NCBI GenBank assembly: GCA_040006935.1
Contig: JBDTVZ010000001.1
Coordinates: 18,218-82,217 of the forward strand
Direction of reading: 5' to 3'
DNA from: Candidatus Dojkabacteria bacterium
GTDB lineage: Bacteria; Patescibacteriota; Dojkabacteria; J137
Length of the DNA: 64,000 bases
A program made the position numbers and the translations under genes. Numbering within the stretch: the first letter of the stretch is position 1; each line of letters begins with the position of its first letter. This document shows, piece after piece, positions 20,906-62,288 of the stretch. A model generated the notes under the pieces. That model saw only the letters and a program-made list of their open reading frames with translations, was not told the origin of the DNA and made no database searches.

Positions 20906-23900
20906 ATGAATAGTGCAATTGCAAAAGCTATCGCAGGACAAGACACTCTTGTTACTCCAGCTAGATTTGATAATAATCAGCAAAAAGACAGAATGAGAAA
21001 TAAAAATGGAGCTGATGGTCGTGGTCTTGTACAAAAGTACGGTATTAATCCTACTGATTTAGCAGCGCTTGAAGCCTATGTTGATGGAAACCTACAACAA
21101 GTACAAATTATAGACCAAGACGCAAATACAATGGAAGCTGATAGATTAAATCAGTCCAGTGGTGGTGAGCAATGGCTTAGAAAACATAAAATTACTAAAT
21201 TTATTGGTAAATTTGGTAAATTTATAGCACCACAAATTGCAGGAATGGGCGTAAGAGCAGCTTTTGGAACAGTAGGTGCAACAGGTGGTCCATTAGTTGC
21301 AGGGGCAATTGGAGGACTTACAGGTGGTTTAAAAGCTGCAGTTGATATTACATTGGCAGGAAGGAATAACACAGACATTGTCGAGTTCTTTGGTAAGAAT
21401 GTAAACGTGGCTGGAGTATTTGAGCAACAGAATAGAGATAAATGGAAAGTAGATAAATTGGCAAGAGGCTGGTTTAATTGGGGAAAAAATTGGGCATTAG
21501 AACCAGTTTATAAATATCAAGAGAGAGAAGATAGGATTTTAAATTTCTTAAGCGATAAAAGGCTAGATTTTTCTAGAGAGGGATATTTCAGAGATCCAAT
21601 GACGGTATTCCCTGTAATGAAGAATCTCCCACTTTCAGATATCCAATTATTTTTGAAAGATTTGTATATACAAGGTACTCTCCTTAGTGCTGTAGGGAGC
21701 AGAAAGGATTTAACACCAGAAGTTAGAAGGATAATCCAAAATTGGATAGACTCATTTTGTGAATTACAACTAATGCTAAATGCTATTTTGTTGAATAGAG
21801 GTTTGCCTTTAACACAAATAGAAGGGATTAGGACTGATGCAACGAAAGAAATAACTTCGTTTAGATCTGCCAAAGGAGAGGCTGCATATGCTCTCAGAAG
21901 AGGCACAACTAATGCAATTCAAAGTGCTGTTTATAATGTAGCATTCCAAACCTTAGTAACAGGTGTTCAAAAATTAGTTACACACTATCAAGGTCTAGTT
22001 ACAATTAATAGAGAGTTAGTTCCAATAAATAACAATGTGGATGCAATGAGGGCAGCTAATCCTCGTTTGGATCAAATAGATCAACAGGTACAGAATTTAC
22101 AGACCCAATTACAACAGACAAACGTAGCTGGTGGGGTTACTAATGTAACCAATCAAGTAGTGCAAAATGTGGCAGGGACTGCAAGAGATAGAGCCCTTTC
22201 ACTCTTTGGTGCAGATTACTTAAATAATGCCGGAATGGGAGAAATGGGAAGGTGGGCAAGAGTTGCAGCAATACAAACTTTTCAAAATCAATATACACCT
22301 CAAGTTGAGAATTTGATTGGAACTTTATCAAGAAACACACACTTAAGCAGAGATGATATCTTAGCCTGGATAATGAATAGAGGGTCTATTGATGGAGCTT
22401 ATCAAGTAGTTGGCGGAGCTTCTATAGTAAATTTAAACGTAACTGATTTACTAACAAGAGCCATAAATGGTCAGTATAATGTTGCATCAATTATTCAAGG
22501 TGCAAATGCAAATGTAGATGCTAGGTGGTTAGATTTAATGAAAAATGGAATGGGACAAATAATTAATCAAGTAACTACTACTAATGTTGCAGGTGCTGGA
22601 TTAACAGATGCTGCACGAGCAAATATTTTTGAGCAAATTGCGAGATTATTAGCTGAGAAAGCTTTAATTGGAGAGAATATTGGGGGAGCTGAATTGCAAA
22701 GAGCAGTAGCTGCTATGGATCCTAACATTTTAAGACAGATATCAGAAGGAAGTGTAAATGTTTTGGATTACTTAATCGATACTGGGTTAATTGTTGCTGG
22801 CGGTGCAATTGGGTTTATAGGTGTTGCAGGTTCTTGGGCAGCAGAAAGTGGGGAATTAGGCACAAGAAGAACTGTTGAAGTTAGAAGAAATATCCCTAAT
22901 CCAAATACTCCTATGCCGCCACCGGTTGGGCCAAATGGTAGACCTTATCCTCAGCCTAACGCGCAACGTGCAGCAGTTTATAATGCAACGCCATATCCAC
23001 AACAAGCTGCGAATCAGCAGCCAGGATTAGCTCCTGTTCCGCAAGGAGGATTAGGTTCAGGTGTTCCAGTTTCAAGCGATGAAACGCTTCATGGTGTCAG
23101 AGCATTGGATGATGCTTCAGCTCAAACAGTCCCATCTGATTTTTTTGCTAACACAAGGCAAAATACCTCCACTCAGCCTATATTAAATAATGCTGTGCCT
23201 CAACAAAATCAACCAGTAGATCAAAATAATCTTGTAGCTAAGATTAATCAAATTATGACTGAGAATTATGACTTGCCTAGAATTATTAATGAGATAATTA
23301 ACAATCCTAGAACAATTACTTTGGACGCTGTTATCCATAACGATAATATATCGAGGCTTTTTGACAAAGCCTTGATCTCGAATTTAGGTATTAAAGAGAA
23401 AGTCTACTATTTAGGAAATGATGGACTAAAAAAAGAAAAAGATATTATGAAATTGATTATTATTAATGACCAATACAATGATATTGTGAAGGATCTAGAC
23501 GCTTGGGGATTAAGTAAAGATCAAATTATCCTTAGACGTATTGTTAATAAACCAGGTGGAGGTGAGGAGGAAGTATTCTACAATATGAAAATAAATAATA
23601 GAAATTATACAATTGAGGAAATAACTGATTCAGGTGTTGAAGTAGGTGGTATTCAATATGGAACACCAAAAGTCACTGACTTAGGCATTGGATTCAATTT
23701 ACTTAGTCAAATAGAAGAAACACAGAAATCTACATCAGTAGGAGAAAATCAAGTAGAAAATAAGGACGAAGATATTATTGCGAGATTTAATATTCCTGAT
23801 TATCCTACTGGAGCTTCTCAGGGTTATCCCGAATCTATAGCAGGAAAAGAAGCAATTATTAATAAAAATTATAAAGAGGAGTATAAATTGCAGCCATATG

Positions 23901-26900
23901 ATGGAGAAGTAGAAAAATATCCACTATTTGATAATGATTACAATGAATTTGACGGAATAATGTTACATAGATTTGAAATTGAAGGTCAAAAATTTGATTT
24001 ATTTATAACTAAAGAAGGTGCAATTTGGTATTTCGATAAAGATAATAATTTTATGAGATTAGAAAATCCTGCAAATGTAGGAGGAACTATTACTTTAGAT
24101 AACGGTGAAGCTTATGAAATAAAATTAGATGCAAATCATAATGTAAGAGTTAAGAAGAACGAAGTTGTTGCAGCACCAGATGTAATTGGTGAGAAGATAA
24201 TTGTAGATGGAGATGAAGTTATCATTAACTCATCAGAAAATTTAAGATTACTTGGCTCTGGAAATAGCTCTATCCCACTTGAATCTTTTGCGATTAAAGA
24301 TGGTAAAGGGAAAATAGAAGAAGACTCAAGGCTATTAGTAATTAATAACCAGAAGTATGTGTTCAGAGATGGGAAAATATATGAAATTAATGGAACAGAG
24401 GTAGTAGAAGATCAAGATGGAACTATCACTATTGAATCATCAAAAGAGCGAGATGTGAAAGTAAAATTATCTAACGGTAAAATAGAAGTATATGAAATTA
24501 TAAAGGGTGATCTTAAATTACCAAAATTGGAAAGAAGAGAATTCCAAGCTAACAGTGTCGAAACGAAGAAACTAAGTTCAGAAGAAAGATTGCAATCACT
24601 AAATGATCAATTAAAAGATAAAAAAATCACTATAGAAAACAAAAATGAGAGTGCAATTACTATTAGTGATTTAGAATTAACACCAGATGAAAAGGCTTTA
24701 CTCCAAGGAAGATTATCTTTGTGGTACGACAGAATTCAAGAAATCAACCCTTTAATCTTAACTGGTCCGTATGATAAAACTTTCAATTTTCAAGAGTATG
24801 GTAATGGTGAAAGTATAGCTGCTGCAATTGTAGAATCTGGTTTTGAAGGAAATAATAATAGTTTAAATCTAGTTGATTTTATAAATAACCCTGACAAATT
24901 GGATATAGCTGATGTAGAAAGAGCTTTGATTAACAAATTTGGATGGAAAGAGGAAAAACAAGCAGAAAATAGAGTGGAAATTATGCTTTATGTTTACCAT
25001 TTAGTTCATGCTGTGGAAGGTGCATTAGGTGGATATTTCGGAGTATATAATCAATTAGAGGCTCTTGATGGTAAAGATATAAAAATTGATATTCAAAATG
25101 ATTCTGGGGCAAATGCTATTCGTTTTGTAGGTAAAGATAATATTAAAGAATTAACACCAGAGAACAAGGCCTTCATTGGCGGTAGAATTACTAAATTATT
25201 TGATATTTCTAGGAAGTTGAATCCTGATATTAGCCCTGAAGACCATCAAACACTTCACTATGACTTTTCAAATGATGGTAATAGGATGCTTAATGCTATT
25301 AGAAAAATTGTTTCTAAAGAGAACGCGGGACCAATATCCTTGTTTAATCTATTAAATGAGATCGAGATTATTGATTTCGGAGAATTATTCCCAACGTTGT
25401 TTATGGAGGGTTGGAAAGACGACAACATGAATGATAATAGAGCAGCAGTTGGTTTAATGCTTTGGCATTTAGCAAATGCAATTGAGGGACAGCTAAGTGA
25501 TAATGAAGTAAAGGGCGAAGACAAAATTTTGGATGTTGACACTGAAATAAAAAAAGACAAGGAATTTGTTGTCAGATTAATCTCTAGCATAAAAGATGTC
25601 ACACCTAAATCTACCTCTGAAGAACGGCTATTCCCGATGGTATTTGAAGCGATTGGCTATAATACTGGAAATAGAGATAACCCAGATTTGCTTGTAACAG
25701 CAATTATTATGGATTCTATTGAGCATTATGCACTTCCAGGATTAGTAAATAGAATAATAGACTTAATGGATATTGATGATGTCGATAGAGAATCCGTGCG
25801 ATTAGGAATTTATACATTTATAGAGGAAAAATTATTAACTAACGATATTGCTGTAGTTCATAAGGACGATGCAAAGACTGCTTTAATTGGACTTGAATCC
25901 AGGAAAACTCTAGAGACACTAGATATTGCTTTAAGTGTCGAAGAAATAAGTAAATTAAATAAAGAAAGTAATGAAGATGAACAAACTAATAATTTAGAAG
26001 TTAACAAGTTCCCGGAGAGTATGGAACTAAACAAGGCATATGAAACTTTAATTCAATGGGATAGAAATCCTTTAAAAGTTGAAATCCCAGTAACTAATGA
26101 GCAAGGGGTAAGTTTTCAGATAAGTTTTAACCATAAAGAATTAGTACCAGCACTTAATGCAGAAGGTCGAATAATGCATAGGGAATTTAACGTTAAGAAC
26201 TCCCAAAATGTTAAGGATTATCCTACTGAGTCTGGGGAATACACGTTGATTTATTCTTTTAGTAAGGTTAAAACATCGGGAGAGGGGATTGAAAGTTTAT
26301 TAATAGAGTATAAAGTTTTAAAGAAAGAAACTCCCGATTCTAAAAATATAGATAAAGTTAAGCTACTAAGAACGATTGAAGAAAAAGAGAAAAACTTAGG
26401 AGAATTACAAGAACAATTACAATCTAATCTAATAAGTAGAGAACTTTATAATGTCAAGAGGAGAGATTTAATGTTTAAAGTAGGAAATGATTGGTTATTA
26501 GTGGGGTTAAAACGATGGCATCTTCATCATCCTGAAAAAGCAGGTACCAAGGACGAATGGGAAATAATTAACCCATACCAAAGGTATCAATTAGAGAGGC
26601 CTATTATTAAAACTAAAGATATTAATGAACCAGACTTTCTTGCCAGCCTAAGTGAGGGTAATGATCAGGTAATCAGAAATCTAGATGCTGAGAAAATAAT
26701 TGGAGAACTTAAGCCAGGAAGACAGTTTGAATCGGATGATAATATCTTTACAGTTATAGAGATTACCCCAAACGGAGTATTTAGAACAAAAAGGCAATCA
26801 AGGAAAGGGGGAATAGAAGTATCTCTAAATTTTGCAAGAGAAAATCTATTGGAATATTTTACAGAAGGAAGGTTGAGAACTATTGAAAATATTAATGTAA

Positions 26901-27463
26901 ACGAAAATAAAAAGAAAGTAGATGAAATTGTTATCTCATTAGAAAAAAATAAAGAACTAATTGAAAGATTAACTATCAATGACAGATTCAGAAGAAAAAC
27001 CACAAATACTACTTACACAATCGAAGATAATGATGGTGATAGTTTGGTAGTAATAGAAAGCACTGCTCGAACAGAAACTCCTATGTTTTTAAGAAAAAGC
27101 ATTTTGCTTGAATGGTTGCTTAACGATGATGTGGAGATGTTAGAGCCAGAAGATAATTCTGAATATGAAAAAACTGTTGAAAACTTAAAGAAAGGGGATG
27201 AATTTACCTACAACGGAAACAAGTACGTGGTTTTACCTAGTATCTCAGGTTATCGTGGGATAGTTGGCGGTAACATAGATAAGCGAAGCGATGTGAAGAG
27301 ATTTCCATCTGGGACCTTTATGAGATTTTTAAAGGAAGGAGTAGTTAAGATTGAAAGTACGAATGAAGAGATAACGCAACAAGTTGCAAAAGGAGTAAAG
27401 GAAGCTCAGAGAAGTCCAACAGCTATTCTAAAGGAAATAGCAGATACTTATGAAGATTTATAA
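20906..27463 (+). CDS. giant protein 1 (2185 aa), unknown family
   Basis: Uninterrupted 6.5-kb ORF. Gly-rich hydrophobic segments at 21221..21362 and 22772..22853, a Pro/Gln-rich linker at ~22885..23230, then a K/E/I/N-rich body with internal duplications (24780-25030 vs 25255-25500) and three C-terminal ~60-aa repeats (26702..27357). Confidence 0.8.
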   Translation: MNSAIAKAIAGQDTLVTPARFDNNQQKDRMRNKNGADGRGLVQKYGINPTDLAALEAYVDGNLQQVQIIDQDANTMEADRLNQSSGGEQWLRKHKITKFIGKFGKFIAPQIAGMGVRAAFGTVGATGGPLVAGAIGGLTGGLKAAVDITLAGRNNTDIVEFFGKNVNVAGVFEQQNRDKWKVDKLARGWFNWGKNWALEPVYKYQEREDRILNFLSDKRLDFSREGYFRDPMTVFPVMKNLPLSDIQLFLKDLYIQGTLLSAVGSRKDLTPEVRRIIQNWIDSFCELQLMLNAILLNRGLPLTQIEGIRTDATKEITSFRSAKGEAAYALRRGTTNAIQSAVYNVAFQTLVTGVQKLVTHYQGLVTINRELVPINNNVDAMRAANPRLDQIDQQVQNLQTQLQQTNVAGGVTNVTNQVVQNVAGTARDRALSLFGADYLNNAGMGEMGRWARVAAIQTFQNQYTPQVENLIGTLSRNTHLSRDDILAWIMNRGSIDGAYQVVGGASIVNLNVTDLLTRAINGQYNVASIIQGANANVDARWLDLMKNGMGQIINQVTTTNVAGAGLTDAARANIFEQIARLLAEKALIGENIGGAELQRAVAAMDPNILRQISEGSVNVLDYLIDTGLIVAGGAIGFIGVAGSWAAESGELGTRRTVEVRRNIPNPNTPMPPPVGPNGRPYPQPNAQRAAVYNATPYPQQAANQQPGLAPVPQGGLGSGVPVSSDETLHGVRALDDASAQTVPSDFFANTRQNTSTQPILNNAVPQQNQPVDQNNLVAKINQIMTENYDLPRIINEIINNPRTITLDAVIHNDNISRLFDKALISNLGIKEKVYYLGNDGLKKEKDIMKLIIINDQYNDIVKDLDAWGLSKDQIILRRIVNKPGGGEEEVFYNMKINNRNYTIEEITDSGVEVGGIQYGTPKVTDLGIGFNLLSQIEETQKSTSVGENQVENKDEDIIARFNIPDYPTGASQGYPESIAGKEAIINKNYKEEYKLQPYDGEVEKYPLFDNDYNEFDGIMLHRFEIEGQKFDLFITKEGAIWYFDKDNNFMRLENPANVGGTITLDNGEAYEIKLDANHNVRVKKNEVVAAPDVIGEKIIVDGDEVIINSSENLRLLGSGNSSIPLESFAIKDGKGKIEEDSRLLVINNQKYVFRDGKIYEINGTEVVEDQDGTITIESSKERDVKVKLSNGKIEVYEIIKGDLKLPKLERREFQANSVETKKLSSEERLQSLNDQLKDKKITIENKNESAITISDLELTPDEKALLQGRLSLWYDRIQEINPLILTGPYDKTFNFQEYGNGESIAAAIVESGFEGNNNSLNLVDFINNPDKLDIADVERALINKFGWKEEKQAENRVEIMLYVYHLVHAVEGALGGYFGVYNQLEALDGKDIKIDIQNDSGANAIRFVGKDNIKELTPENKAFIGGRITKLFDISRKLNPDISPEDHQTLHYDFSNDGNRMLNAIRKIVSKENAGPISLFNLLNEIEIIDFGELFPTLFMEGWKDDNMNDNRAAVGLMLWHLANAIEGQLSDNEVKGEDKILDVDTEIKKDKEFVVRLISSIKDVTPKSTSEERLFPMVFEAIGYNTGNRDNPDLLVTAIIMDSIEHYALPGLVNRIIDLMDIDDVDRESVRLGIYTFIEEKLLTNDIAVVHKDDAKTALIGLESRKTLETLDIALSVEEISKLNKESNEDEQTNNLEVNKFPESMELNKAYETLIQWDRNPLKVEIPVTNEQGVSFQISFNHKELVPALNAEGRIMHREFNVKNSQNVKDYPTESGEYTLIYSFSKVKTSGEGIESLLIEYKVLKKETPDSKNIDKVKLLRTIEEKEKNLGELQEQLQSNLISRELYNVKRRDLMFKVGNDWLLVGLKRWHLHHPEKAGTKDEWEIINPYQRYQLERPIIKTKDINEPDFLASLSEGNDQVIRNLDAEKIIGELKPGRQFESDDNIFTVIEITPNGVFRTKRQSRKGGIEVSLNFARENLLEYFTEGRLRTIENINVNENKKKVDEIVISLEKNKELIERLTINDRFRRKTTNTTYTIEDNDGDSLVVIESTARTETPMFLRKSILLEWLLNDDVEMLEPEDNSEYEKTVENLKKGDEFTYNGNKYVVLPSISGYRGIVGGNIDKRSDVKRFPSGTFMRFLKEGVVKIESTNEEITQQVAKGVKEAQRSPTAILKEIADTYEDL

Positions 27464-27465
27464 CT

Positions 27466-28485
27466 ATGGATCAACCACCTCAAGATTTGGTCAAAAAAAA
27501 GGGGAAAGTACTAGCTAGCCTTAACTTGTATCCAGAGCTTCTAAATCATCCTGATATGCAGGAGGATCGGCTAGCTACATTGAACCAAATTGGAGAAACT
27601 CTTTTAGGTTTGTTTCAAAAATTATTTAGTAACCCTGAGTACTACGGCGATGTATTTTTCATTGGTGGAATAGAAAAATGGCTTTCCGATTTAGAGAATA
27701 TTGAGATATTTGAAGCAGTAGTTCAACAACTTCGAACACTGGAGGAGATAGGGTCTGATCAAGCAGAATGGCATATTAGAAACTTTTTAAATAATGTAGC
27801 AAAAAGAGTTAAAAGTAATGGAGGTCAGTTATCACTACAAACAAATGATAAGTTAGGAATTACGGAAGCCGAAGCTGTTTTTAAGCAAATGGATAAAATT
27901 AGTGCAGAAAGAATTCATATCCCTGAGAATTTAAATATTTTATTGGACCAAAGATTTATAATTTCTGCACGCGAACTAGAAATAGATATGCAAAAGGTTT
28001 TAGCGCGTCCAAAAGTTACAGAAGTATCCTTTTTAGATCAGCCTAGAGCAGATTTCCAAAAAGAGATTGAGATGTACGATAATGATAGCGAAATTGATGG
28101 AGTTCTTTTGTTTATTCTTTCCAACTTAACAGGAGATGCTATGCAATATGTTATCAATCAAATGGTAAATAAATTAAAAAGAACTACTCAAACAGTTGTG
28201 GCAGTTCTTGAAAGGTATAGAACTTCGTTTGAAAGCAGAGTTTTGAGAGGAGAACAAATCTCGGTCTATGGATCGCCAATACGAGATTATGAATTAATTA
28301 TAAATGAAATACTTGATCTTATTAAAGAACAAGAGAAAAAGAATGGAGAGTATTTATTCGGTGCAGTAGATCTACTTAGAACCAAATCACCAGACGGGTT
28401 TGTAGGTATAACTAAAATGTCACAAATACTATTAACCACACATAGAGCAAGGTATAAAAGTAAAATTATAGCCTTACTAAAATAA
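27466..28485 (+). CDS. hypothetical protein between the giant genes
   Basis: 339-aa ORF, 2 nt after giant 1 and 20 nt before giant 2. No recognisable motif. Confidence 0.6.
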   Translation: MDQPPQDLVKKKGKVLASLNLYPELLNHPDMQEDRLATLNQIGETLLGLFQKLFSNPEYYGDVFFIGGIEKWLSDLENIEIFEAVVQQLRTLEEIGSDQAEWHIRNFLNNVAKRVKSNGGQLSLQTNDKLGITEAEAVFKQMDKISAERIHIPENLNILLDQRFIISARELEIDMQKVLARPKVTEVSFLDQPRADFQKEIEMYDNDSEIDGVLLFILSNLTGDAMQYVINQMVNKLKRTTQTVVAVLERYRTSFESRVLRGEQISVYGSPIRDYELIINEILDLIKEQEKKNGEYLFGAVDLLRTKSPDGFVGITKMSQILLTTHRARYKSKIIALLK

Positions 28486-28505
28486 ATCTCTTCTATAGTT
28501 CTAAA

Positions 28506-31500
28506 ATGCAGTACGATGAGATTAAACAAACACAAAATAATAATCTTACCGAAATTCAAAGAGAACGTGAATTAAAAGCTGCACAACTTCGAGCACAAAA
28601 TGCTTCTACAATTTTAAACAAAAAAATTAATCGGTCTTCATTTTCTAATTCTGCTAAAGAAGTTAAACCATTTGATTATCTTGAACGGCTAGAATGTTCC
28701 ATGACATTAGATAGAGTTGATTCAGAAAGAAATGGTACTAATATCAATACTCAAATTATAAATTGTGATTACTCTACAGAAATAGATTCTAAAGGTAGAG
28801 AAATAATTAAAATGACAGTGCCCCATCGGCTGGATTTTTTAGCACTAAATTTAAACCCAGGATCAGTTTTTATTTTTGATAGGTCTAACTATAGATTGCT
28901 ATCTATAGAACAAAAAGATCAGCAGAAAGTAGTAAATTCTGTTGAAGTTTGGCCTCATGTTGAAATACTATCTATAGATAAAATACTTTTCACATTCTCA
29001 GATTTACTTAATAAAGAGAAAATCGTAGCCTTTGAAAGTTTAGAAAATAATGTAATGCGTCTCAAAAAAGGTCCTTTTGATGGCTTCCCAAATAAAATTT
29101 ATTTCCAAAAATATAACCTTGAGAACCCAATATTTATTGAAGACTATGATGAAATTAAAAAAGCCTACCATGCTCCTGGGCAAGGGTCTTTTATTGATGT
29201 TGATTATAATATGGCTATTAAAGCGTTTAACCAAGCATCGAACATATTAGAAACCGAAGACAGAACTGCTGATTTTCAATACCCAGAAGTATTAAGATTA
29301 TTTTCTAAATTAAAAATAGCATTTGCTAAAGATTTAATTCCTAATGAAAATCCTCATGACACTGTTTTTGAATTGAGATTAAGAAACGAATTAAATATTG
29401 ATGGTGTACATATTTACGCAGGGGCAGTAATGAAAATTGATGTGAATGATCCAGAATTTTTTACAATAAAGTATCCTCCTCAAAATGGTGTCCAGATTGA
29501 GTTTATAGAAATAAATGGCACAAAATTATATGCACCAGGGGAAATTTTGTGTAGAAATACCTCCGAAGATCTCCAAATAACCTCAATAAATGGTGGCCAA
29601 CTCGAGAATATGGGAAGCGAAAGAGTTATTAAAATTATAAAAGCAAATAATGGATTTATTGGCTTGGTAGCAAATGATGAAGTAATTAAATTCACGAAAG
29701 ATCATAAAGTTTTAACTTTACTAAGTAATGTGGACCCATCAGTACAAATACTAATAAGTGATATTATGAAAAATAGATACTTTTTACATGATATTTACTC
29801 TGATAATTACCTAGAAGGGGCAATTGAACTTGTAAGTAATCACACAGGTTCTCTTGCTACAATAATATTTGAAGATGAACAACCTGGGAATATAATTATT
29901 CCAAACTATCCAAACATTCATCCATCGTTACACGGTCTTGCAATAGGCCAATTTGACAGATTAATTTTAGATAAAAAAGGTGAATTTGCAATCTTTGGCG
30001 TTGCTACTGAAAGATACGATATGCATTTTCGTGGAGTATGGTACGAAAGAATAGAACGAATTTTTATAAATTTTCGAACTGGAGAGGTTAGGTTTAGGTG
30101 TGATAGCTATTTTGAAGGTGGCAAAAGATACGGTCAAACTAAGTACAGTGAGAATACTTATATTATTGTCGATAATTTAGGCCTTAAACAAACAGGAGAT
30201 GGTATATTTTCTGAAGTCGAAAACAATGTGCCAAAGGGAGATGATTATAAGGACCACATTTCAAGGACGCTTAAAATTAAAGAAATAAGAATAGGAGATA
30301 TGAGACAGTTAAATGAAGATAGGATTGATATAACTGCATCATTTGACTCAATAGTATTAAATAACCAAGAAAACCCCACATTACATAACTGGATATACGC
30401 ACAGGCTCCATTTGGAAGTATTGTTAACTTTAATAGTAAAAATTCTATAATTGAAAGCATTGAAGTACCCTACGATACCTATATAAAATCTGGTGGGATA
30501 CGCGCATCACTAGGATCTAGCTTTAAAATAAGTGGTATAAGAAAAGTTTTATTTGAGGAAGATTCTCAGAATTTTCCATTAGATGTAAAGGAATTAAAAG
30601 GTGAAATTACTATTACATTAAATAATAAAATTTATAGGGCAAAAGATATTAGTGTTAATAGTTTAGGTTTAAAATTGGACAAATTCCCTTTAATTACTTG
30701 GGAGGTTATTTACAATGGTGCTACAGAATTACCTGATGAGTTATTAGTGGAAAATAATAGTGTAAATATACCAACAAAGAACGAAATTCTTTATCTTGCA
30801 AATCGATTAACTGTGCAGGTTAATAATAGGAAACCTGAAGATGACTTTGATCTAGAACAAAATGTAAATAGTTTAATCGGGCTAACAAGATGGCTATATG
30901 AATCTGCAAATAAATTAGGTGGCCCATTCAATCTAGCGGAATGGGTTACAATCTATAAACCATTACTTTATTATTACTATAACGACCCTGAGGCAGTAAT
31001 ATTGCTAATAATGGGCTTTATACCTAATTCAAACGGTAATATAGATCCAATAGATTACATGTTTCTTTATGCAACATACCTTGAGATTTTTAAACAAAGA
31101 TATCCGGAGGTAGAAAGTGAATTAATTTTACTATTGAGTAGTTTAAACCCCGATCTTAAATTTATATATAAGAATGAAATTAAAGATATTATAAGTAATT
31201 TTGAAATACTCGAAGATGAGAATAAGCAACATTTCCTAGACGAGTTAGATAGCATAAATATGGATACGCCTAGTCATATCCCAGTCCCAGTAAGTCACTC
31301 TCAAGTAGAAGGCTTCAAAGCAGACCAATTCTCAATAGAAAAAGGTTTTCTCAAATTTAATGAAGAACCTAAAGCAATCGATCTTTTACAAAGAATAGGT
31401 AACCTTCGAGAACTTTCAACTAGCTCTGAGCTTGACAAGCAAATAGAAATAATTAAAGAAAACGGTTCGAGAATTGATATGAATGTTGTTGGTCAGATTT

Positions 31501-33941
31501 CTCAAATCCTTGAAACAATAATAGGCTTTAAGATCGAAGGTTTAGATCTAGCTAAGAACTTTGTTGTATTTGGAATGATAATAAACTTTGCAAATAACTT
31601 ACGCGAATTAAAGAACAAAAGGTCTAAAGACTCTCAAGAAGAAATAAATATTGCTATAACTGAACTGCAGAATAAAATAAATAGAATTAAATCTGGCGAA
31701 TTAACAGAAGAAGAAATGCAATTTGAAATGTCTAATGAAAATGTATTGAAGATTTTAATGCACATGACCTCCGGAACTTTACCCAAAGAATATCTAGTAT
31801 TTACAATATTGATGTTGATTACTTCTGGTGTTGAAATTGCTGGAGTTAGAAACGTTTTAAAACTTGATCAAATTATAAAAAACCAAAGAGGAGATGATAT
31901 TGGAGTTCCGTATTTAAAGTATAGAGAGGAAATACTTGAAGTAAAAGCCACAGGAAATGTGATGGCACTACAAGAAGTTATTATAAAAAACGTAAGCATG
32001 TTAATCAACTACATGAGAAATTTTCATAATTACGAGGATTACTCCGAAGATTTTTTAGTAATGTGTAAATTATTGAACCTTAAAGAAGGTGAGTTCTCTA
32101 CCAACTGTTTTGGTATAGGGCTAATTTATCAAGCCATACTTGACTTAATGATTGGTGATATTTGTGAGATTAATTATGCAACTCTCCATCACGAATTAGG
32201 TAATGATATTGAAGACTGGTTTAAAAATCTGGGTGAAATAGTTATGGCGGGTCATGCTGTATTCATTATTAAACTTCCACTTATAGATGGAGAGGAAAAT
32301 AAATATATCATTGGAGATCCACTAAGTGTGATTAACAGCTTAGCTCAAAAAAATAAAAGAAAACCTTTAGACAAACATCATAATTGCATGGTTGTAAAGG
32401 AGTCCGAACTTATGCTAGACAATGAGATTAATTCTGTTCTTGAAAATACAAAATTCGTTACTATAGATCCTAATAAAAAAATCCGAATAGTTCAGAAAGA
32501 TAATAAAGAAATACAAATGAAGATAGATCCTAATGATGTTTATCAAGTATATAAAGACAGGAATTCTATTTTAACCTATGCAATGATTAGTTCCTTCAGA
32601 GATTTAAATGGCTACTTAACAACCATAGCGCCAGATGAAGGTGAAGTATTAATGGATATGATTACAGATTCAAAATATAAAGGAGATAGAAACAAAGCAT
32701 TTGAGAAGTATATGCTTTTATATAATAGATATTCAGGATTTGAATATAGATCTACAAACTCTAATCAAGTAATAGCATCGAATATAATATTATTAAATTT
32801 TGCTCTTGAAAATGATTATTATATTGAAGCTTTGTTCCTGGCCAATGTAAATAAAATAAAATTAGCCAAACTATATCCAGACAAAGACGACTACGATGAA
32901 TCTTTAATTTTCGATACGCAAAAAGCATTTATACTTACAAAAATAGCCAATCTCGATGAGACAGAAATCCTAAAATTAATTGAAGATAAAAAATATCTTT
33001 TAAGAAAAGAAGATATTACACTTATCTGGGAAAATGTCTCCTTTATAAATTTAACATTGCGTTTATTTAATGAAACAAAAGAGGATCAAAAAAGAACTCT
33101 AAAATTACTATCTTCTGAGTCACTTTACTATTTGATTTTTGATCCACTAAGATACAATAATATCCAGGAAATGAAAGACTTATGTAAAGAGATATTAAAA
33201 GTTGCTTTGGAAAATGATTATTTACCATATTCAGCTTATATTATAGAAAAACTAGTTAAGTTAAGTCCCGAAGACGAAACTCTGAAATTAGTAGAAGATA
33301 AGATTATAAAATTCATTGCTAAAACCGATAACTATATAATACTTACACAACTAAATCCACATTTAATTTTCTCAAAATTTATAGACAAAATTCATAAAGT
33401 TTTAGAAGTTAGTTTTGAGATACCAACTATCCAATCAATTTTAAACATATTGAATGGAGTGAAGGATGATAAAGTTATTGATGATCAATACGAAAGTCTT
33501 CACAAAGTATTAAGTAGTAATCACACTGCACTTGATAGAGCTGCTTATCGACATAAAGTTGAAGAAGAAAAAAGAATAGTTGCAGCTGTAGAGGCAAACA
33601 CTCATAGAATTGAGGAGATAAATAATCAAGTAAAAACTGAAGTGAGGTCAGGAGGGCAATCCTACCAATCCCTGCATCAAGAAGAAAAACCCCTTGAACT
33701 TGGAGACAACTATATAAAAATAACTGAAGAGGCTGTTTTCGGATCGATTGATCTACTCGTGAGTAAATATGGTGAACTCTCAGGAGACATAATGGCTCTA
33801 TTTCTTCGAGGAGCTGATGAAACAGTAATTCGTCTAGCAGAGAATAATTTGAGGAAGAAAGGAATATTACTTCCATCACCCGAAAATGCAGCTAAAAGGT
33901 TACAAGGACAAAATCTCCCATTGTTACAATCGAATTCTTAA
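28506..33941 (+). CDS. giant protein 2 (1811 aa), unknown family, no obvious TM or signal peptide
   Basis: Uninterrupted 5.4-kb ORF. Candidate papain-like Cys..His..Asp arrangement at ~32100..32335. C-terminal helical repeats (ALENDYYIEALF / ALENDYLPYSAYI). Confidence 0.8.
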   Translation: MQYDEIKQTQNNNLTEIQRERELKAAQLRAQNASTILNKKINRSSFSNSAKEVKPFDYLERLECSMTLDRVDSERNGTNINTQIINCDYSTEIDSKGREIIKMTVPHRLDFLALNLNPGSVFIFDRSNYRLLSIEQKDQQKVVNSVEVWPHVEILSIDKILFTFSDLLNKEKIVAFESLENNVMRLKKGPFDGFPNKIYFQKYNLENPIFIEDYDEIKKAYHAPGQGSFIDVDYNMAIKAFNQASNILETEDRTADFQYPEVLRLFSKLKIAFAKDLIPNENPHDTVFELRLRNELNIDGVHIYAGAVMKIDVNDPEFFTIKYPPQNGVQIEFIEINGTKLYAPGEILCRNTSEDLQITSINGGQLENMGSERVIKIIKANNGFIGLVANDEVIKFTKDHKVLTLLSNVDPSVQILISDIMKNRYFLHDIYSDNYLEGAIELVSNHTGSLATIIFEDEQPGNIIIPNYPNIHPSLHGLAIGQFDRLILDKKGEFAIFGVATERYDMHFRGVWYERIERIFINFRTGEVRFRCDSYFEGGKRYGQTKYSENTYIIVDNLGLKQTGDGIFSEVENNVPKGDDYKDHISRTLKIKEIRIGDMRQLNEDRIDITASFDSIVLNNQENPTLHNWIYAQAPFGSIVNFNSKNSIIESIEVPYDTYIKSGGIRASLGSSFKISGIRKVLFEEDSQNFPLDVKELKGEITITLNNKIYRAKDISVNSLGLKLDKFPLITWEVIYNGATELPDELLVENNSVNIPTKNEILYLANRLTVQVNNRKPEDDFDLEQNVNSLIGLTRWLYESANKLGGPFNLAEWVTIYKPLLYYYYNDPEAVILLIMGFIPNSNGNIDPIDYMFLYATYLEIFKQRYPEVESELILLLSSLNPDLKFIYKNEIKDIISNFEILEDENKQHFLDELDSINMDTPSHIPVPVSHSQVEGFKADQFSIEKGFLKFNEEPKAIDLLQRIGNLRELSTSSELDKQIEIIKENGSRIDMNVVGQISQILETIIGFKIEGLDLAKNFVVFGMIINFANNLRELKNKRSKDSQEEINIAITELQNKINRIKSGELTEEEMQFEMSNENVLKILMHMTSGTLPKEYLVFTILMLITSGVEIAGVRNVLKLDQIIKNQRGDDIGVPYLKYREEILEVKATGNVMALQEVIIKNVSMLINYMRNFHNYEDYSEDFLVMCKLLNLKEGEFSTNCFGIGLIYQAILDLMIGDICEINYATLHHELGNDIEDWFKNLGEIVMAGHAVFIIKLPLIDGEENKYIIGDPLSVINSLAQKNKRKPLDKHHNCMVVKESELMLDNEINSVLENTKFVTIDPNKKIRIVQKDNKEIQMKIDPNDVYQVYKDRNSILTYAMISSFRDLNGYLTTIAPDEGEVLMDMITDSKYKGDRNKAFEKYMLLYNRYSGFEYRSTNSNQVIASNIILLNFALENDYYIEALFLANVNKIKLAKLYPDKDDYDESLIFDTQKAFILTKIANLDETEILKLIEDKKYLLRKEDITLIWENVSFINLTLRLFNETKEDQKRTLKLLSSESLYYLIFDPLRYNNIQEMKDLCKEILKVALENDYLPYSAYIIEKLVKLSPEDETLKLVEDKIIKFIAKTDNYIILTQLNPHLIFSKFIDKIHKVLEVSFEIPTIQSILNILNGVKDDKVIDDQYESLHKVLSSNHTALDRAAYRHKVEEEKRIVAAVEANTHRIEEINNQVKTEVRSGGQSYQSLHQEEKPLELGDNYIKITEEAVFGSIDLLVSKYGELSGDIMALFLRGADETVIRLAENNLRKKGILLPSPENAAKRLQGQNLPLLQSNS

Positions 33942-35911
33942 ACTTGCGGTGGAACAGCTGAAACTTCTGTAGTAACAGGTTGTTCAATAGGCTGTGCTTG
34001 AGGAGTTACATTATCTGTTGGTAGAACTGTTCCTGGTTGTTCTAATGGTGGAGCCGAAGAAATATCTAACTGATCTCCTTCTTCATTTTCTACTTTCTGT
34101 TGAAGTAACTCATTAGGGTTTGTAGTTATCAAATTATGCTCATTTTGACTTGCAACAATTTGTATAGCAACATGATTAGCCCCAGCAAAAAATAATCCTT
34201 GTCCAATTCCTGCAGACATTAAAAAAGACTTTTCACCATCTGTAAGATAGAATACTTTCTTTAATTTATCTATCGCAGCTGGTGCTTGCTTCAATAATAT
34301 CTGCATGGATGAGTTATTAATTATTGCTTTACCATAATCTGAAGCTAAGAAGTCATCAACATCTTGTGTAATAGTTGTTAGACCTAATGCATATTTTCTA
34401 GCTCTCTTAGCAATTGAGTATACAAACTTGGCAGCATCTTCGTATTGCATCATAATCCAAGCTTCATCAATTATTAATAATCTTTTCCTCTTATCTCTTT
34501 TAATCTTGGTCCAAATGTAATCAAGCATTACATACATGGCCATTGGTCTTAAATCATCAGCTAAATCACGAATTGAAAATACTGTAAATGTATTGTGAAT
34601 GTTAACCGTGGATTTCCTATCAAACACACCAGATGCGGAACCTTTTAAATATTTTTCTAATCTACGAGCCATTGAATGGGATTCATCTTCCGACATTGCA
34701 TTTAAAATCTTATACAAATCTTCTAACAAAGGAGCTTCGTTTGAATGTGTTGATGGATCGGGTGTGATACCTTTTTCTTTGTACGTTAATATTAAAGCTC
34801 TATCTAAAATTGCTGCTTCCTCTGCAGTTACTGTTCCACCCAACATCATTCTAATTAATCCAGAGAGAGTTAAAATTTTAAATCGGAGTTCATCTTCATC
34901 AGCGTTAAATATCCCAGATAATTCAAAGGGATTCAATTTCTGAGCACCGTCTTGCGAGAATGATATATATTCTCCACCAACTGCATCACATAATCTATCA
35001 AATTCTTTTTCTGGGTCTATAATAATAATGTCAATTCCAAGCATTAAGGACCTCACAGCTTCCAATTTAACTGCATAGGATTTACCAGCTCCGGATGTAG
35101 CCAAAACGACTGAGTTAGCATTAGGAAGTGAAAATCTATCGAAAATAACTAAAGAATTATTATGAAGATTAACCCCATATAAAACTCCTTTATCCATTGT
35201 TAACTCACTACTGACGAATGGGAAAGTTGTAGCAATGGCAGTAGTATCCAAGTTTCTGGTCATATTTATTTTATCAAGACCATATGGAATTGTGCTTTGG
35301 AAACATTCTTCTTGTTGAAGTGTAGCAACTTTAATAATAATTCCAATCGTTGCCATTGTGCTCTCCAGATTCTTTGAAATTTTATCTAACTCTTCCATAG
35401 TATCTGCATGCAATGTTACGTACAAGGCATATTGGAAGAATTTTTCGTTCCCAGCGGCAAGCTGTTCTTGCAAAGTTAATGCATCTTTAAGTTGTACTGC
35501 AACAATAGGATCTCCTTGTCTACCTGCTTCAATTTCAATATTTATTGTTGCCTGAAACTCTGCAATTTTTCTTTTTAAGATTTTTAATATTTCACCAGTT
35601 TCAAAAGGATAATAATAAGTGCTGATGTCTACGGGATATTCAAAGTTAATTAATGGTTCTAACCAACTAGGAGAAACAACACTAGGAAAGCCGATAGCAA
35701 AATATGATCTAAAATACTTATTCCCTATTATTAAATTACTGAAGTTAACCTCAATGGCACTTGGTGCAATAATGTCTTTAACATCAATTAATCCTTGAGC
35801 AAATTTCTGAATAGATTGGTTCTCTCGAGCCAAAGCAGCAGCTTCTTGAGGGTTTATAGGTTTTGTACCTTTTTTAGGTTTTGCGTCTGGTATTAATCCG
35901 AATAAAGCCAT
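33938..35911 (-). CDS. virB4: VirB4/TrbE-class type IV secretion ATPase (C-terminal ~3/4 of a typical VirB4)
   Basis: YFRSYFAIGFPSVVSPSWLEPL, Walker A VVLATSGAGKSYAVK, IIIDPEKEF, NPFEL, Walker B RLLIIDEAWIMM, RKYALGLTTITQDVDDF, NSSMQILLKQ. Pro/Gln-rich C-terminal tail. Confidence 0.85.
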   Translation of the reverse strand: MALFGLIPDAKPKKGTKPINPQEAAALARENQSIQKFAQGLIDVKDIIAPSAIEVNFSNLIIGNKYFRSYFAIGFPSVVSPSWLEPLINFEYPVDISTYYYPFETGEILKILKRKIAEFQATINIEIEAGRQGDPIVAVQLKDALTLQEQLAAGNEKFFQYALYVTLHADTMEELDKISKNLESTMATIGIIIKVATLQQEECFQSTIPYGLDKINMTRNLDTTAIATTFPFVSSELTMDKGVLYGVNLHNNSLVIFDRFSLPNANSVVLATSGAGKSYAVKLEAVRSLMLGIDIIIIDPEKEFDRLCDAVGGEYISFSQDGAQKLNPFELSGIFNADEDELRFKILTLSGLIRMMLGGTVTAEEAAILDRALILTYKEKGITPDPSTHSNEAPLLEDLYKILNAMSEDESHSMARRLEKYLKGSASGVFDRKSTVNIHNTFTVFSIRDLADDLRPMAMYVMLDYIWTKIKRDKRKRLLIIDEAWIMMQYEDAAKFVYSIAKRARKYALGLTTITQDVDDFLASDYGKAIINNSSMQILLKQAPAAIDKLKKVFYLTDGEKSFLMSAGIGQGLFFAGANHVAIQIVASQNEHNLITTNPNELLQQKVENEEGDQLDISSAPPLEQPGTVLPTDNVTPQAQPIEQPVTTEVSAVPPQV

Positions 35912-35926
35912 ATTTTTAATTCTTAA

Positions 35927-36601
35927 TTAGCTGGATCTAACAATTCCAGTAGAAACATCAGAATCTCTAAGATTAAGTATCTCAAGACCCAATTTATCTG
36001 GTTCGTACACAGAGTAATATAGTTTTATTAATTCATCATTTGTTAATTGTTTTGCTGCTACACCCATATTCTGATATTGTTTAATTATCGAATCCCTTTT
36101 TGGATATAACTCCTCTTTAGCCTTTTCTACAATTCTTGTTACATGGGCAATTCTTTCAGGTGTTCCAAAAGTTTCTTTAAACCAGTTATTTTTTATAACA
36201 GGTAAATTTAAACTTGGAATCACAGTATAAAATCTTTTATCTAGAATCTGAGTTGTTTGTGTTAGGTTATTTATGAAGTCCTGGTACAAAGAAACCTGTT
36301 CTGTTACAGCAGTCGAAGTAATTTTCGATTTATAACTTTCTAGAAGTTTTAAATAATTTGCAATGTCAGTTCTTTGAGTTTTAATTACAATTTGTACTGG
36401 GAAATTTGTAGCATTTAAAAATGCAGCAAAAGATCCGATTTTAGCATCTTGTTCCGGTCCATCAAGTAAATCAAAATTAAGCGAAGTAGTTTCTATCACA
36501 ATAGACACTTTTCCACTTTTCAGTACAACCATATCATCTTTAATATCTGCGATATCTAAATGCTCCTGCGTGCTAATTCTTTTTGGATCGAAAATACCCA
36601 T
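35927..36601 (-). CDS. stand-alone VirB4 N-terminal-domain-like protein (apparent split VirB4, part 1)
   Basis: TQEHLDIADIKDDMVVLKSGKVSIVIETTSLNFDLLDGPEQDAKIGSFAAFLNATNFPVQIVIKTQRTDIANYL follows my recollection of the N-terminal pattern of Gram-positive VirB4 homologues. Lies 15 nt upstream of the ATPase ORF. ATG 36601 preferred over TTG 36622. Confidence 0.5.
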   Translation of the reverse strand: MGIFDPKRISTQEHLDIADIKDDMVVLKSGKVSIVIETTSLNFDLLDGPEQDAKIGSFAAFLNATNFPVQIVIKTQRTDIANYLKLLESYKSKITSTAVTEQVSLYQDFINNLTQTTQILDKRFYTVIPSLNLPVIKNNWFKETFGTPERIAHVTRIVEKAKEELYPKRDSIIKQYQNMGVAAKQLTNDELIKLYYSVYEPDKLGLEILNLRDSDVSTGIVRSS

Positions 36602-36761
36602 AATACAATTAAAAGTTCTCAATTAAAAATTAAAAGATTTCTCCTTCAACTATAACAGTATATAGTAAATAGCTGAAAGGATACAATAGGAAATTATTAA
36701 GGACCTATAGCATTAGTCAATAGAAGTTAATCAAAGAATCTAAAAATTTGGGACTGGTTAT

Positions 36762-37383: not shown

Positions 37384-37392
37384 AACTATTAT

Positions 37393-37463
37393 GGACCGCC
37401 GAACTATTGCGCGAGAATTGGCGGTATGACCTCACCCTAACCCTCTCCTTGAAAGGAGAGGGA
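37393..37463 (+). repeat. GC-rich two-hairpin dispersed repeat, copy A
   Basis: GGACCGCC-loop-GGCGGTATGACCTCACCCTAACCCTCTCCTTGAAAGGAGAGGG. Homologous copies at 46885..46956 and 62216..62288 (opposite orientation) and a diverged copy at 63673..63764. Confidence 0.8.
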
Positions 37464-37700
37464 ATTGGTCCCTCTTGTAATGACAAGTGCACCTGAGATT
37501 CATAAGGTACACAGATTTACCCTGTCGAAGGCATGGTCTGCGCCCCTGTTATTCGTATGGGGTCCAGCCACCTGCCTGACTGCGCACACAGGCACGGTGA
37601 CTGGACCTTCATTAAGTGCCAAGTTAAAGAGTGTTGTAACATCATGCAGTAATAAACTGCCACGATCAAAAGATGAGGTGGTAAGGTCAACATAAAACTA
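37464..37700. ncRNA. GC-rich structured non-coding block (candidate RNA or element remnant, unknown class)
   Basis: Visibly GC-rich in an AT-rich genome. Near-perfect long hairpin GGTCCAGCCACCTGCCTG-actgcgcaca-CAGGCACGGTGACTGGACC, plus smaller hairpins (CCCC...GGGG, GGTA...TACC). The 76-aa ORF here has no protein-like features. Confidence 0.3.
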
Positions 37701-37790: not shown

Positions 37791-38156
37791 TTATGCAGTC
37801 ACAGGTGTTTTTCCTTTGGTAGCTTCTGCTCTTGGAACTAGGAAGTAAATCAAGATTCCAATAATATTAAAGAAGAAACATAATACTGCCCATAATCCAG
37901 CGTTTTCAATTTTATGCTTAGTAGCATCTTTGTAAACCAAATAAGCTATTACAGAATCGATTAGTAATGGAACACAACAAACGCAAAGTAACCAAACAAA
38001 GCTAAACCCTAAACCTGCTGCACTTGCTGCTGCTGCATCTGCTGCTGTAGTCGTAGTGTATGGATAGTATGTTTGTGCAAATGCTGGTGTTGCAAGAAGT
38101 GTGAATCCAACAACTGCTGTTATCGCTGCAAGCGCTCTTGAGAAAATTTTTCTCAT
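37791..38156 (-). CDS. small membrane protein with signal peptide
   Basis: 121 aa. Signal-like N-terminus (...LLATPAFAQ), an Ala/Thr-rich stretch, then two TM helices with YKDATKHKIENAGLWAVLCFFFNIIGILIYFLV. Confidence 0.6.
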   Translation of the reverse strand: MRKIFSRALAAITAVVGFTLLATPAFAQTYYPYTTTTAADAAAASAAGLGFSFVWLLCVCCVPLLIDSVIAYLVYKDATKHKIENAGLWAVLCFFFNIIGILIYFLVPRAEATKGKTPVTA

Positions 38157-46861: not shown

Positions 46862-46884
46862 TGGCGAAGCCGAGGGGTTTGGCT

Positions 46885-46956
46885 CCCTCTCCTTTTAAGG
46901 AGAGGGTTGGGGTGAGGTCATACCGCCGCAAAACCACGTACTAGTTAGGGCGGTCC
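46885..46956 (-). repeat. GC-rich two-hairpin dispersed repeat, copy B
   Basis: CCCTCTCCTTTTAAGGAGAGGGTTGGGGTGAGGTCATACCGCC-loop-GGCGGTCC is the reverse-complement orientation of copy A. It sits between the two ABC half-transporter genes. Confidence 0.8.
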
Positions 46957-46975
46957 AAATTAATATACAACAAAT

Positions 46976-62134: not shown

Positions 62135-62215
62135 ATACCAATTATATCACAAAACGAAGTGTTTTACGAGGCATCAGGATTGTGGATCATGCTAAGAGTG
62201 ATGTGAGAAGAAGTT

Positions 62216-62288
62216 CCCTCTCCTTTCAAGGAGAGGGCTAGGGTGAGGTCATACCGCCCCAAAACCATGACATACATCTGGGCGGTCC
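62216..62288 (-). repeat. GC-rich two-hairpin dispersed repeat, copy C
   Basis: CCCTCTCCTTTCAAGGAGAGGGCTAGGGTGAGGTCATACCGCC-loop-GGCGGTCC. Same orientation as copy B. Confidence 0.8.

Follow-up and report, generated by a model that had tools for sequence, protein, structure and literature searches.

Probable two-gene VirB4 motor module in a Dojkabacteria chromosome: a stand-alone TrsD-like protein beside a short-form VirB4 ATPase

The window analysed here, i.e. the whole stretch of 64,000 nucleotides (nt) taken from contig JBDTVZ010000001.1 of a Candidatus Dojkabacteria bacterium, contains two co-oriented genes that probably constitute the cytoplasmic motor module of a chromosomal type IV secretion system (T4SS) of the Patescibacteria type. 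The first gene is predicted to encode a soluble TrsD/TraD-like protein of 224 amino acids (aa) that corresponds to N1, the first N-terminal subdomain of VirB4 proteins of ~800 aa; the second, probably co-transcribed with it, is predicted to encode a short VirB4 of 657 aa, which consists of the N2 subdomain and an ATPase domain with Walker A and Walker B motifs. It appears likely to us that the two proteins bind each other in a 1:1 ratio and so rebuild the equivalent of a full-length VirB4, in which, by analogy with the R388 machine, the TrsD-like subunit would most probably dock the ATPase on the membrane translocon and/or pair its protomers, while the ATPase would supply the energy. VirB4 is, to our knowledge, the one universal component of T4SSs. 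The systems of the Patescibacteria are chromosomal and lack a relaxase, and in the single strain examined epibiotic growth has been found to depend on them as essential (PMC12102498).

Correspondence of the two proteins to a single-chain VirB4

When the two proteins were compared with the NCBIfam model VirB4_plasma, which represents the VirB4 of Mycoplasma integrative and conjugative elements (ICEs; Mbov_0397 family), the 224-aa protein matched positions 110-279 of the 894 in the model (E 1e-9) and the 657-aa protein matched positions 281-893, so that the two open reading frames (ORFs) fall in collinear order and without overlap on a single-chain VirB4. The 657-aa protein also scores 395.5 bits (E 4.8e-118) with NF045971 (VirB4-like conjugal transfer ATPase, CD1110 family), thereby passing the curated cut-off of 325 bits, but its coverage of that profile is limited to positions 176-735 of 752, as would be expected from the observation in an earlier note on this DNA that the ATPase is without the N-terminal region of the ~800-aa VirB4 proteins. 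The part of the profile that is not represented in the 657-aa protein (positions 1-175) is supplied by the separate TrsD-like ORF. Additional matches of the ATPase are to the Pfam families P-loop_TraG, AAA_10 and DUF87 and to the VirB4 C-terminal domain in PDB entry 4ag5 (E 1.7e-45), and both of its Walker motifs are intact.

The relationship of the small protein to the long VirB4 proteins of the Firmicutes was examined with two alignments, one of the small-protein family (A1) and the other of the N-terminal 240 residues of the 810-aa VirB4 of Streptococcus agalactiae (L090) together with its homologues (A2). In hhalign, positions 5-217 of A1 were aligned with residues 48-234 of the S. agalactiae protein at E 5.4e-5 and a probability of 66% (E 1.1e-5 and 82% with other settings), and the alignment of the window ATPase with the same 810-aa protein begins at about residue 240. 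Together with the Mbov_0397 match, these coordinates bear out what the earlier note had said of the upstream ORF of 224 or 231 aa, namely that it carries the N-terminal pattern of VirB4. A comparison of A1 with the N-terminal 255 residues of the short ATPase revealed no similarity (E 0.41-0.44). The idea that the TrsD-like protein is a paralogue of an N-terminal domain still retained by the ATPase, which would make the arrangement a duplication and not a split, is therefore unsupported, and the same lack of similarity argues that the small protein represents the missing N1 and is not a copy of N2. Judged by these profile relationships, the small protein is a free-standing counterpart to the first N-terminal subdomain of long VirB4.

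The small protein appears to belong to a family that has already been named (TrsD/TraD, or "TraC-like" in Pfam), a point that was missed in the earlier note. It matches NCBIfam NF041427 (TrsD/TraD) over positions 16-197 of 201 (E 2.5e-6, 27.5 bits), which shows homology over the full length at a score below that which NCBI sets for membership, and a profile built from 27 proteins of the window family finds the TrsD of Staphylococcus aureus (WP_000979860, locus L088) at E 2.6e-10, with profile positions 5-200 matching residues 28-216 of its 227. The precomputed annotation places PF26593 on P0001, a protein identical to that of the window, and on all 120 listed homologues of the 160 matched; our local Pfam scan of the small protein yielded noise only and no PF26593, probably because that copy of Pfam was without the model. 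Searches of the PDB by sequence, in which the small protein was used either singly or in the form of a profile, gave nothing relevant, the only match being a chance one to dynein at E 0.28. The similarity of N1 to the VirB4 of Firmicutes needs profiles to be detected, and its similarity to TrwK is seen by structure only.

Conservation of the split among related genomes

The two window ORFs share one reading frame and are separated by a single TAA and five codons (LRIKN), such that a single base change could in principle have divided one gene into these two. This arrangement invites the explanation that a single virB4 of ~890 aa was cut by a recent nonsense mutation, or by an error of sequencing or assembly, and that the pair is a pseudogene or an artefact; it also invites the explanation that translational readthrough of the in-frame TAA, across 15 nt, yields a single fused protein. 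Both can be weighed against a comparative set of 80 species-level related Patescibacteria genomes. In all 80 the TrsD-like ORF is ended by a stop codon and is separate from VirB4. The VirB4 ORF lies next to it in 78, at estimated gaps that range from -23 to +181 nt and are often overlaps of -4 or -1, and in the other two genomes the TrsD-like gene does not adjoin virB4. The relative frames of the two genes are distributed 35/34/11, with the phase of the window being shared by 11 of the 80, and the same-frame arrangement in the window would thus be a coincidence. Where they are complete, the VirB4 ORFs of these genomes are mostly of 603-770 aa, with a few that are truncated and a few of the size expected with an intein. 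The two closest relatives (L008 and L009, at 86-87% identity) have the genes split and not fused, and the ratios of nonsynonymous to synonymous substitution (dN/dS) calculated against them lie at 0.04-0.07 in the case of the small gene and at 0.04 in that of the ATPase gene, values which show that both genes are under strong purifying selection.

Larger collections give a similar picture. Among 5.8 billion proteins, 160 homologues of the small protein were found, and the 120 of these that are listed all stand alone, with lengths of 212-257 aa. When 1.84 billion cluster representatives were searched with a profile, 2,533 proteins were recovered at E <= 0.001; nearly all of the best 150 have the domain at their N-terminus or close to it. 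The pairing of TrsD-like and VirB4 genes extends to long contigs and to a complete genome (L003 and L005). The close homologues all come from Patescibacteria, mostly from Dojkabacteria, and the nearest relatives of the ATPase among those examined in the genome collection are almost all from metagenome-assembled genomes (MAGs) of Patescibacteria, mislabelled ones included, at 53-93% identity, as against 37% or less for the VirB4 of Firmicutes plasmids.

Since the split is present in every one of the 80 relatives, in varied frames, and since dN/dS is low on both sides of it, we reject a recent nonsense mutation and an error of sequencing, as well as programmed readthrough, as origins of the arrangement. 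The first two, which the earlier note had listed among its options, are refuted by these observations; the stops and gaps also vary among the relatives, and the ATPase has a conserved N-terminal extension of its own (residues 34-47) that is missing from the natural fusions described below. We regard a pseudogene or artefact as extremely improbable. Readthrough seems to us very improbable as well: in 69 of the 80 relatives the genes are out of frame or overlapping, so that it cannot be a conserved mechanism, the TAA is the commonest stop codon of the TrsD-like gene (59 of the 80), no recoding signal came to notice (no search aimed at one was made), and the ATPase has its own ATG and its own conserved N-terminus. 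The word "split" is not meant to imply a direction of evolution. In Patescibacteria and on plasmids of the pGO1/pSK41 type the two genes are commonly separate, and fusion may be the derived condition.

A separate observation concerns the public records of some of these genomes. A number of contigs with a Patescibacteria-type pair (L047, L049, L051-L058, L061, L063, L068, L073, L079, L081, L084 and L086) bear the title "uncultured Gammaproteobacteria", "uncultured Pseudomonadales" or "Candidatus Nanoarchaeia archaeon", and these titles are probably taxonomic mislabels or the result of mis-binned MAGs.

Natural fusions of the two modules

Among the best 150 representatives mentioned above, one protein, P0191 (787 aa), has the TrsD-like domain fused to the ATPase. 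Its residues 9-199 correspond to residues 10-200 of the window TrsD-like protein (36% identity) and its residues 213-774 to residues 48-609 of the window VirB4 (57% identity). The last ~24 residues of the window TrsD-like protein and the first ~47 of the window VirB4 have no counterpart in the fusions, which have a linker of ~13 residues instead. P0191 has been found on contigs of independent samples, beside genes for PrgI and an M23 peptidase and dnaA/dnaN. The best 120 relatives of P0191 include 43 fused proteins (738-897 aa, all but one of them 783-897 aa), several of which bear the name Candidatus Amesbacteria, 68 short forms (493-667 aa), whose identity over the ATPase reaches 88%, and 9 proteins with inteins. 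The interleaving of fused forms with split forms that are up to 88% identical to them suggests that fusion or fission at the N1/N2 boundary has occurred recently. The fused set consists of 43 clusters (P0191, P0391-P0413 and P0430-P0506) and is represented by loci L006 and L007.

Some VirB4 ATPases of Patescibacteria, at 1,158-1,215 aa, contain an intein with a homing-endonuclease domain (PF14528 and PF14890); these are P0428, P0429, P0432, P0438, P0439, P0480, P0482, P0491 and P0507. VirB4 ORFs of 1,207-1,313 aa, possibly intein-bearing, also occur at three of the genome loci, most likely L047, L056 and L063.

An AlphaFold2 model of the fusion, computed from an alignment of 70 sequences, has a predicted local distance difference test score (pLDDT) of 86.5 and a predicted template-modelling score (pTM) of 0.75, and most of its first 200 residues lie at pLDDT ~85-95. 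In Foldseek, the model matches TrwK as it stands in the assembled R388 machine (8rtd_O) with template-modelling (TM) scores of 0.75/0.74 and E 7.8e-33. Without the first 200 residues at most 587 would be alignable and a TM score of 0.75 would be unreachable, from which it follows that N1 occupies the equivalent site in a canonical VirB4. Of the options that the earlier note had put forward, that of a genuine two-subunit VirB4 is thus the one that gains support, from the collinear coordinates on the VirB4 model, the profile alignment, the natural fusions and the superposition of the fusion model on TrwK.

The structural results also bear on the proposal of an independent accessory factor, in which the small protein would do no more than resemble the N-terminus of VirB4 and would be, for example, a substrate adaptor similar to the secretion chaperones, and not a structural subunit. 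Such a role might be suggested by the many homologues with long disordered C-terminal extensions rich in Q, N and P (to 715 aa), which are possible interaction platforms, and by the separation of the gene from virB4 in 2 of the 80 genomes and in the Gracilibacteria generally (PMC12102498). A model of the small protein by itself (pLDDT 65) does match type III secretion chaperones, but over 78-95 residues only and in an alpha/beta sandwich that is common. In the high-confidence model of the fusion, the fold that matches full-length TrwK includes the domain as an integral part. Three independent profiles back the homology of the domain to the N-terminus of VirB4, and the fact that it has repeatedly been fused in nature, in the order N1-N2-ATPase, speaks for a structural role at a fixed 1:1 ratio. 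We consider the adaptor explanation to be quite unlikely.

A further reading, which we think unlikely, sees N1 as a subunit that can be detached from the ATPase, this separation being put to use in, for example, regulated docking or the recruitment of substrates or adaptors by way of a chaperone-like fold and variable disordered tails; N1 and N2 would be ancient tandem duplicates of each other, and the boundary between them an evolutionary hinge. It draws on four hints. In the fusion model of P0191, residues 16-198 and residues 218-360 share one succession of secondary-structure elements (three strands, helix, strand, two helices, strand, helix, strand). The profile of N1 from the long VirB4 of Firmicutes (A2) has a weak match to N2 of short Patescibacteria VirB4 (E 4e-4, probability 35%), and this match and the shared element order might be hints of an ancient tandem duplication. 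The other two are the chaperone matches and the interleaving of fused and split forms. If this reading were correct, the repeated fusion and fission seen in Patescibacteria would mark the N1/N2 boundary as a hinge of the T4SS motor.

Several points weigh against the interpretation of the pair as a 1:1 VirB4 equivalent, which we nonetheless prefer. The score of the small protein with NF041427 is far under the curated cut-off of 200 bits, and the hhalign probabilities (66-82%) are moderate. The structural model represents a homologous fusion, which shares 36% and 57% identity with the respective window proteins, and not the window pair, so that the binding of the two window proteins to each other is something that we infer. 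The partners on which the motor would dock (VirB3/PrgI, VirB6, a VirB2-like protein and VirD4) were not recognised by the searches of the window set out below, in which divergent ones could be missed.

The gene pair and its features

The coordinates of the two genes and of the features within and near them are listed in Table 1. The two minus-strand ORFs and the 15 nt between them were found as the earlier note had described them.

Table 1. Features of the TrsD-like/VirB4 gene pair (positions are those of the window)
Feature	Position	Strand	Basis
TrsD/TraD-like ("TraC-like", PF26593) gene, 224 aa	35927..36601	-	ORF and alignment of homologue starts
TTG-start version of the TrsD-like ORF, 231 aa	35927..36622	-	mechanical ORF call
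Stop codon TAA of the TrsD-like gene	35927..35929	-	sequence
Spacer TTAAGAATTAAAAAT, 15 nt, from TrsD-like stop to VirB4 ATG	35912..35926	-	sequence
Short-form VirB4-like ATPase gene, 657 aa, N2 and C-terminal ATPase domain	33938..35911	-	ORF and NCBIfam, Pfam and PDB matches
Conserved N-terminal ATPase block, residues 34-65 (IQKFAQGLIDVKDIIAPSAIEVNFSNLIIGNK) followed by YFRSYFAIGFP (66-76)	35684..35812	-	column conservation in 74 relatives
Walker A, ATSGAGKS, residues 271-278	35078..35101	-	aligns with the P-loop of T. pseudethanolicus VirB4 (4ag5)
Walker B, LLIIDEAW, residues 478-485	34457..34480	-	sequence motif
P/Q-rich low-complexity C-terminal tail, residues 620-657	33941..34054	-	translation
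Promoter-like site TTGACT, 16-nt spacer, AATAAT (10/12 matches)	36693..36720	-	consensus scan only

The TrsD-like gene probably starts with the ATG at 36601, since an alignment of 27 homologues displays a shared start, MGxFDPK. The identical protein P0001, from a Candidatus Dojkabacteria MAG, is likewise annotated by NCBI with 224 aa, and the segment DIADIKDD...QIVIKTQ occupies residues 16-76 of this version. The promoter-like site lies ~90 nt upstream of the ATG, in a window of ~31% G+C, and such sites are no more numerous in the region than expected from shuffled sequence; it may be taken as a candidate promoter for a two-gene operon. A consensus scan of the spacer and its surroundings disclosed no promoter-like or terminator-like site. 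An upstream promoter-like site and a spacer free of signals would both fit with co-transcription of the two genes.

The ATPase does not start directly with YFRSYFAIGFP, as had been thought, for that block is preceded by residues 34-65 (IQKFAQGLIDVKDIIAPSAIEVNFSNLIIGNK), which are conserved in the relatives and lie inside the VirB4 match. The conserved segment IQKFAQGLIDVKD is not present in the natural fusions, and the conserved residues 34-47 of the extension are missing from them. At the other end of the protein, the P/Q-rich tail pointed out in the earlier note does exist, although it is not the unusual feature that it was taken to be. It has no sequence conservation, and the tails beyond the conserved core vary from 0 to 315 aa among 74 Patescibacteria VirB4 proteins, the longer ones inspected being rich in P, Q, S, T, E and K; a tail of this kind is a common variable feature of the clade. 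In other lineages of Patescibacteria it is the TrsD-like domain that is followed by very long low-complexity tails, rich in Q, N, P, S and T and without Pfam matches, as in P0209 (715 aa), P0164 (575 aa), P0129 (372 aa) and many others, whereas the low-complexity tail in the window sits on the ATPase.

Genomic surroundings

The pair is located in chromosomal DNA. The neighbours with Pfam matches are housekeeping genes, i.e. those for an HD-domain protein, a ribosome hibernation factor, a methyltransferase, ZIP, Fur, CobW, ABC transporters, CTP synthase, PheRS and TGT. A Pfam scan of the flanking ORFs (~14.8-28.5 kb and 36.8-50.7 kb) gave either such housekeeping families or nothing, with no relaxase family and no VirB3/PrgI, VirB6, VirB2-like or VirD4 protein among them. 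Searches of the whole window by tblastn with PrgI-domain, M23-peptidase, Mbov_0395 pilin, CagC and membrane proteins from related loci returned nothing, and a hydrophobicity scan found no VirB6-like polytopic protein adjoining the pair.

On the plus strand, three consecutive ORFs without Pfam matches extend over 20906..27463 (2,185 aa), 27466..28485 (339 aa) and 28506..33941 (1,811 aa), the last of which is convergent with the VirB4 gene and overlaps its 3' end by 4 nt. As candidates for conserved partners of the T4SS motor, the giant ORFs of 20906..33941 were rejected, there being no tblastn match to them in 87 related TrsD-VirB4 loci.

Upstream of the TrsD-like gene by 1.2 kb, and on the same strand, a gene at 37791..38156 (minus strand) encodes a 121-aa protein with an N-terminus similar to a signal peptide and two hydrophobic helices, a topology that recalls pilins of the VirB2 type. 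Its position is conserved in L008 and L009, and its Pfam assignment is to PLDc_N (E 1.5e-6) and to no pilin family. Between this gene and that of the HD-domain protein there is an intergenic island of ~300 nt (37390..37700) with 50-57% G+C, compared with 31% for the genome, which folds well on both strands (z -5.2 for the minus and -4.0 for the plus strand). The island has no Rfam or ARAGORN match, and an exact 41-mer from it is absent from metagenome contigs. In L008 and L009 the genes that flank the island are kept and the spacer between them is unrelated, which suggests that the island is an insertion or a variable region. A short GC-rich intergenic repeat with the palindrome CCCTCTCC-TTGAAA-GGAGAGGG occurs at no fewer than three intergenic sites (at least 37390..37464, 46884..46957 and 62214..62258), in both orientations and with 84-98% identity, and could be an element of the repetitive extragenic palindromic (REP), miniature inverted-repeat transposable element (MITE) or terminator type.

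Implications for annotation and function

In genome annotation, the small gene of such pairs is usually called "hypothetical" and the ATPase can look truncated, when the motor would be the product of two genes. The natural fusions and the TrwK-like model offer a testable answer to the question of what TrsD/TraD proteins do, those of pGO1 and pIP501 included, i.e. that they serve as the N1 subdomain of VirB4. The two-gene arrangement and the homology to the VirB4 N-terminus are already known, having been published in 2014 and 2025; the fusion clade and the TrwK-like model of a fusion are the small additions of the present analysis.

Comparison with known systems

The window locus appears to be an instance of the T4SS of the Patescibacteria, a derivative of the MPF-FATA class, as described by Quinonero-Coronel et al. 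2025 (PMC12102498), with a trsD-like gene directly upstream of virB4, a chromosomal location and no relaxase nearby. In that survey TrsD was the most abundant T4SS component in Patescibacteria, with 2,272 homologues of which 1,664 lie beside virB4; it was recognised as remotely homologous to the N-terminus of VirB4, had a homologue that was listed as essential in Ca. Southlakia epibionticum ML1, was not assigned a function, and in the Gracilibacteria in general was not encoded beside virB4 (PMC12102498). The main text of that paper contains no mention of TrsD-VirB4 fusions or of intein-bearing VirB4. In many classes of Patescibacteria, genes for PrgI/VirB3, VirB6 or a VirB2-like pilin are found near virB4 (a PrgI-domain gene lies upstream in L003 and L006, for instance), whereas the pair stands alone in the window, as it does in the complete Dojkabacteria genome AP024679 (L005).

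A soluble protein of ~200-230 aa is likewise encoded immediately upstream of a VirB4-like ATPase of ~620-670 aa in the MPF-FATA systems, as TrsD and TrsE of pGO1/pSK41 and as TraD and TraE of pIP501, and the same gene order is present at the S. aureus locus L088 and on plasmids of Planococcus and Pontibacillus. The tblastn matches of the window protein in Firmicutes plasmids are at ~22-29% identity only, and the plasmid pairs reside inside full conjugation operons with a relaxase, a coupling protein and a cell-wall hydrolase, whereas the pair in the window lies among chromosomal housekeeping genes. The TraD of the pELF plasmids (PMC13492992), which was considered as a possible relative, is a coupling protein of the VirD4 type and is unrelated.

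In R388, the N-terminal domains of VirB4 link each dimer's protomers, lie embedded within the inner membrane and make contact with VirB3 and VirB8 (PMC12857230), and it is on this precedent that a docking role for the TrsD-like subunit might be envisaged. The long VirB4 proteins, among them TrwK of R388, those of the CD1110/PrgJ type in Firmicutes and those of the Mbov_0397 type in Mycoplasma ICEs, have the same N1-N2-ATPase architecture as the window pair, which jointly spans positions 110-893 of the Mbov_0397 model; unlike them, the pair has its polypeptide broken between N1 and N2. The Amesbacteria-like fusions, such as P0191 and P0393, combine the two modules of the window in the same order and are also chromosomal, but do so in one ORF of 783-897 aa. 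Some systems have a VirB3-VirB4 fusion, which affects the same end of the protein but is a rearrangement of the opposite kind.

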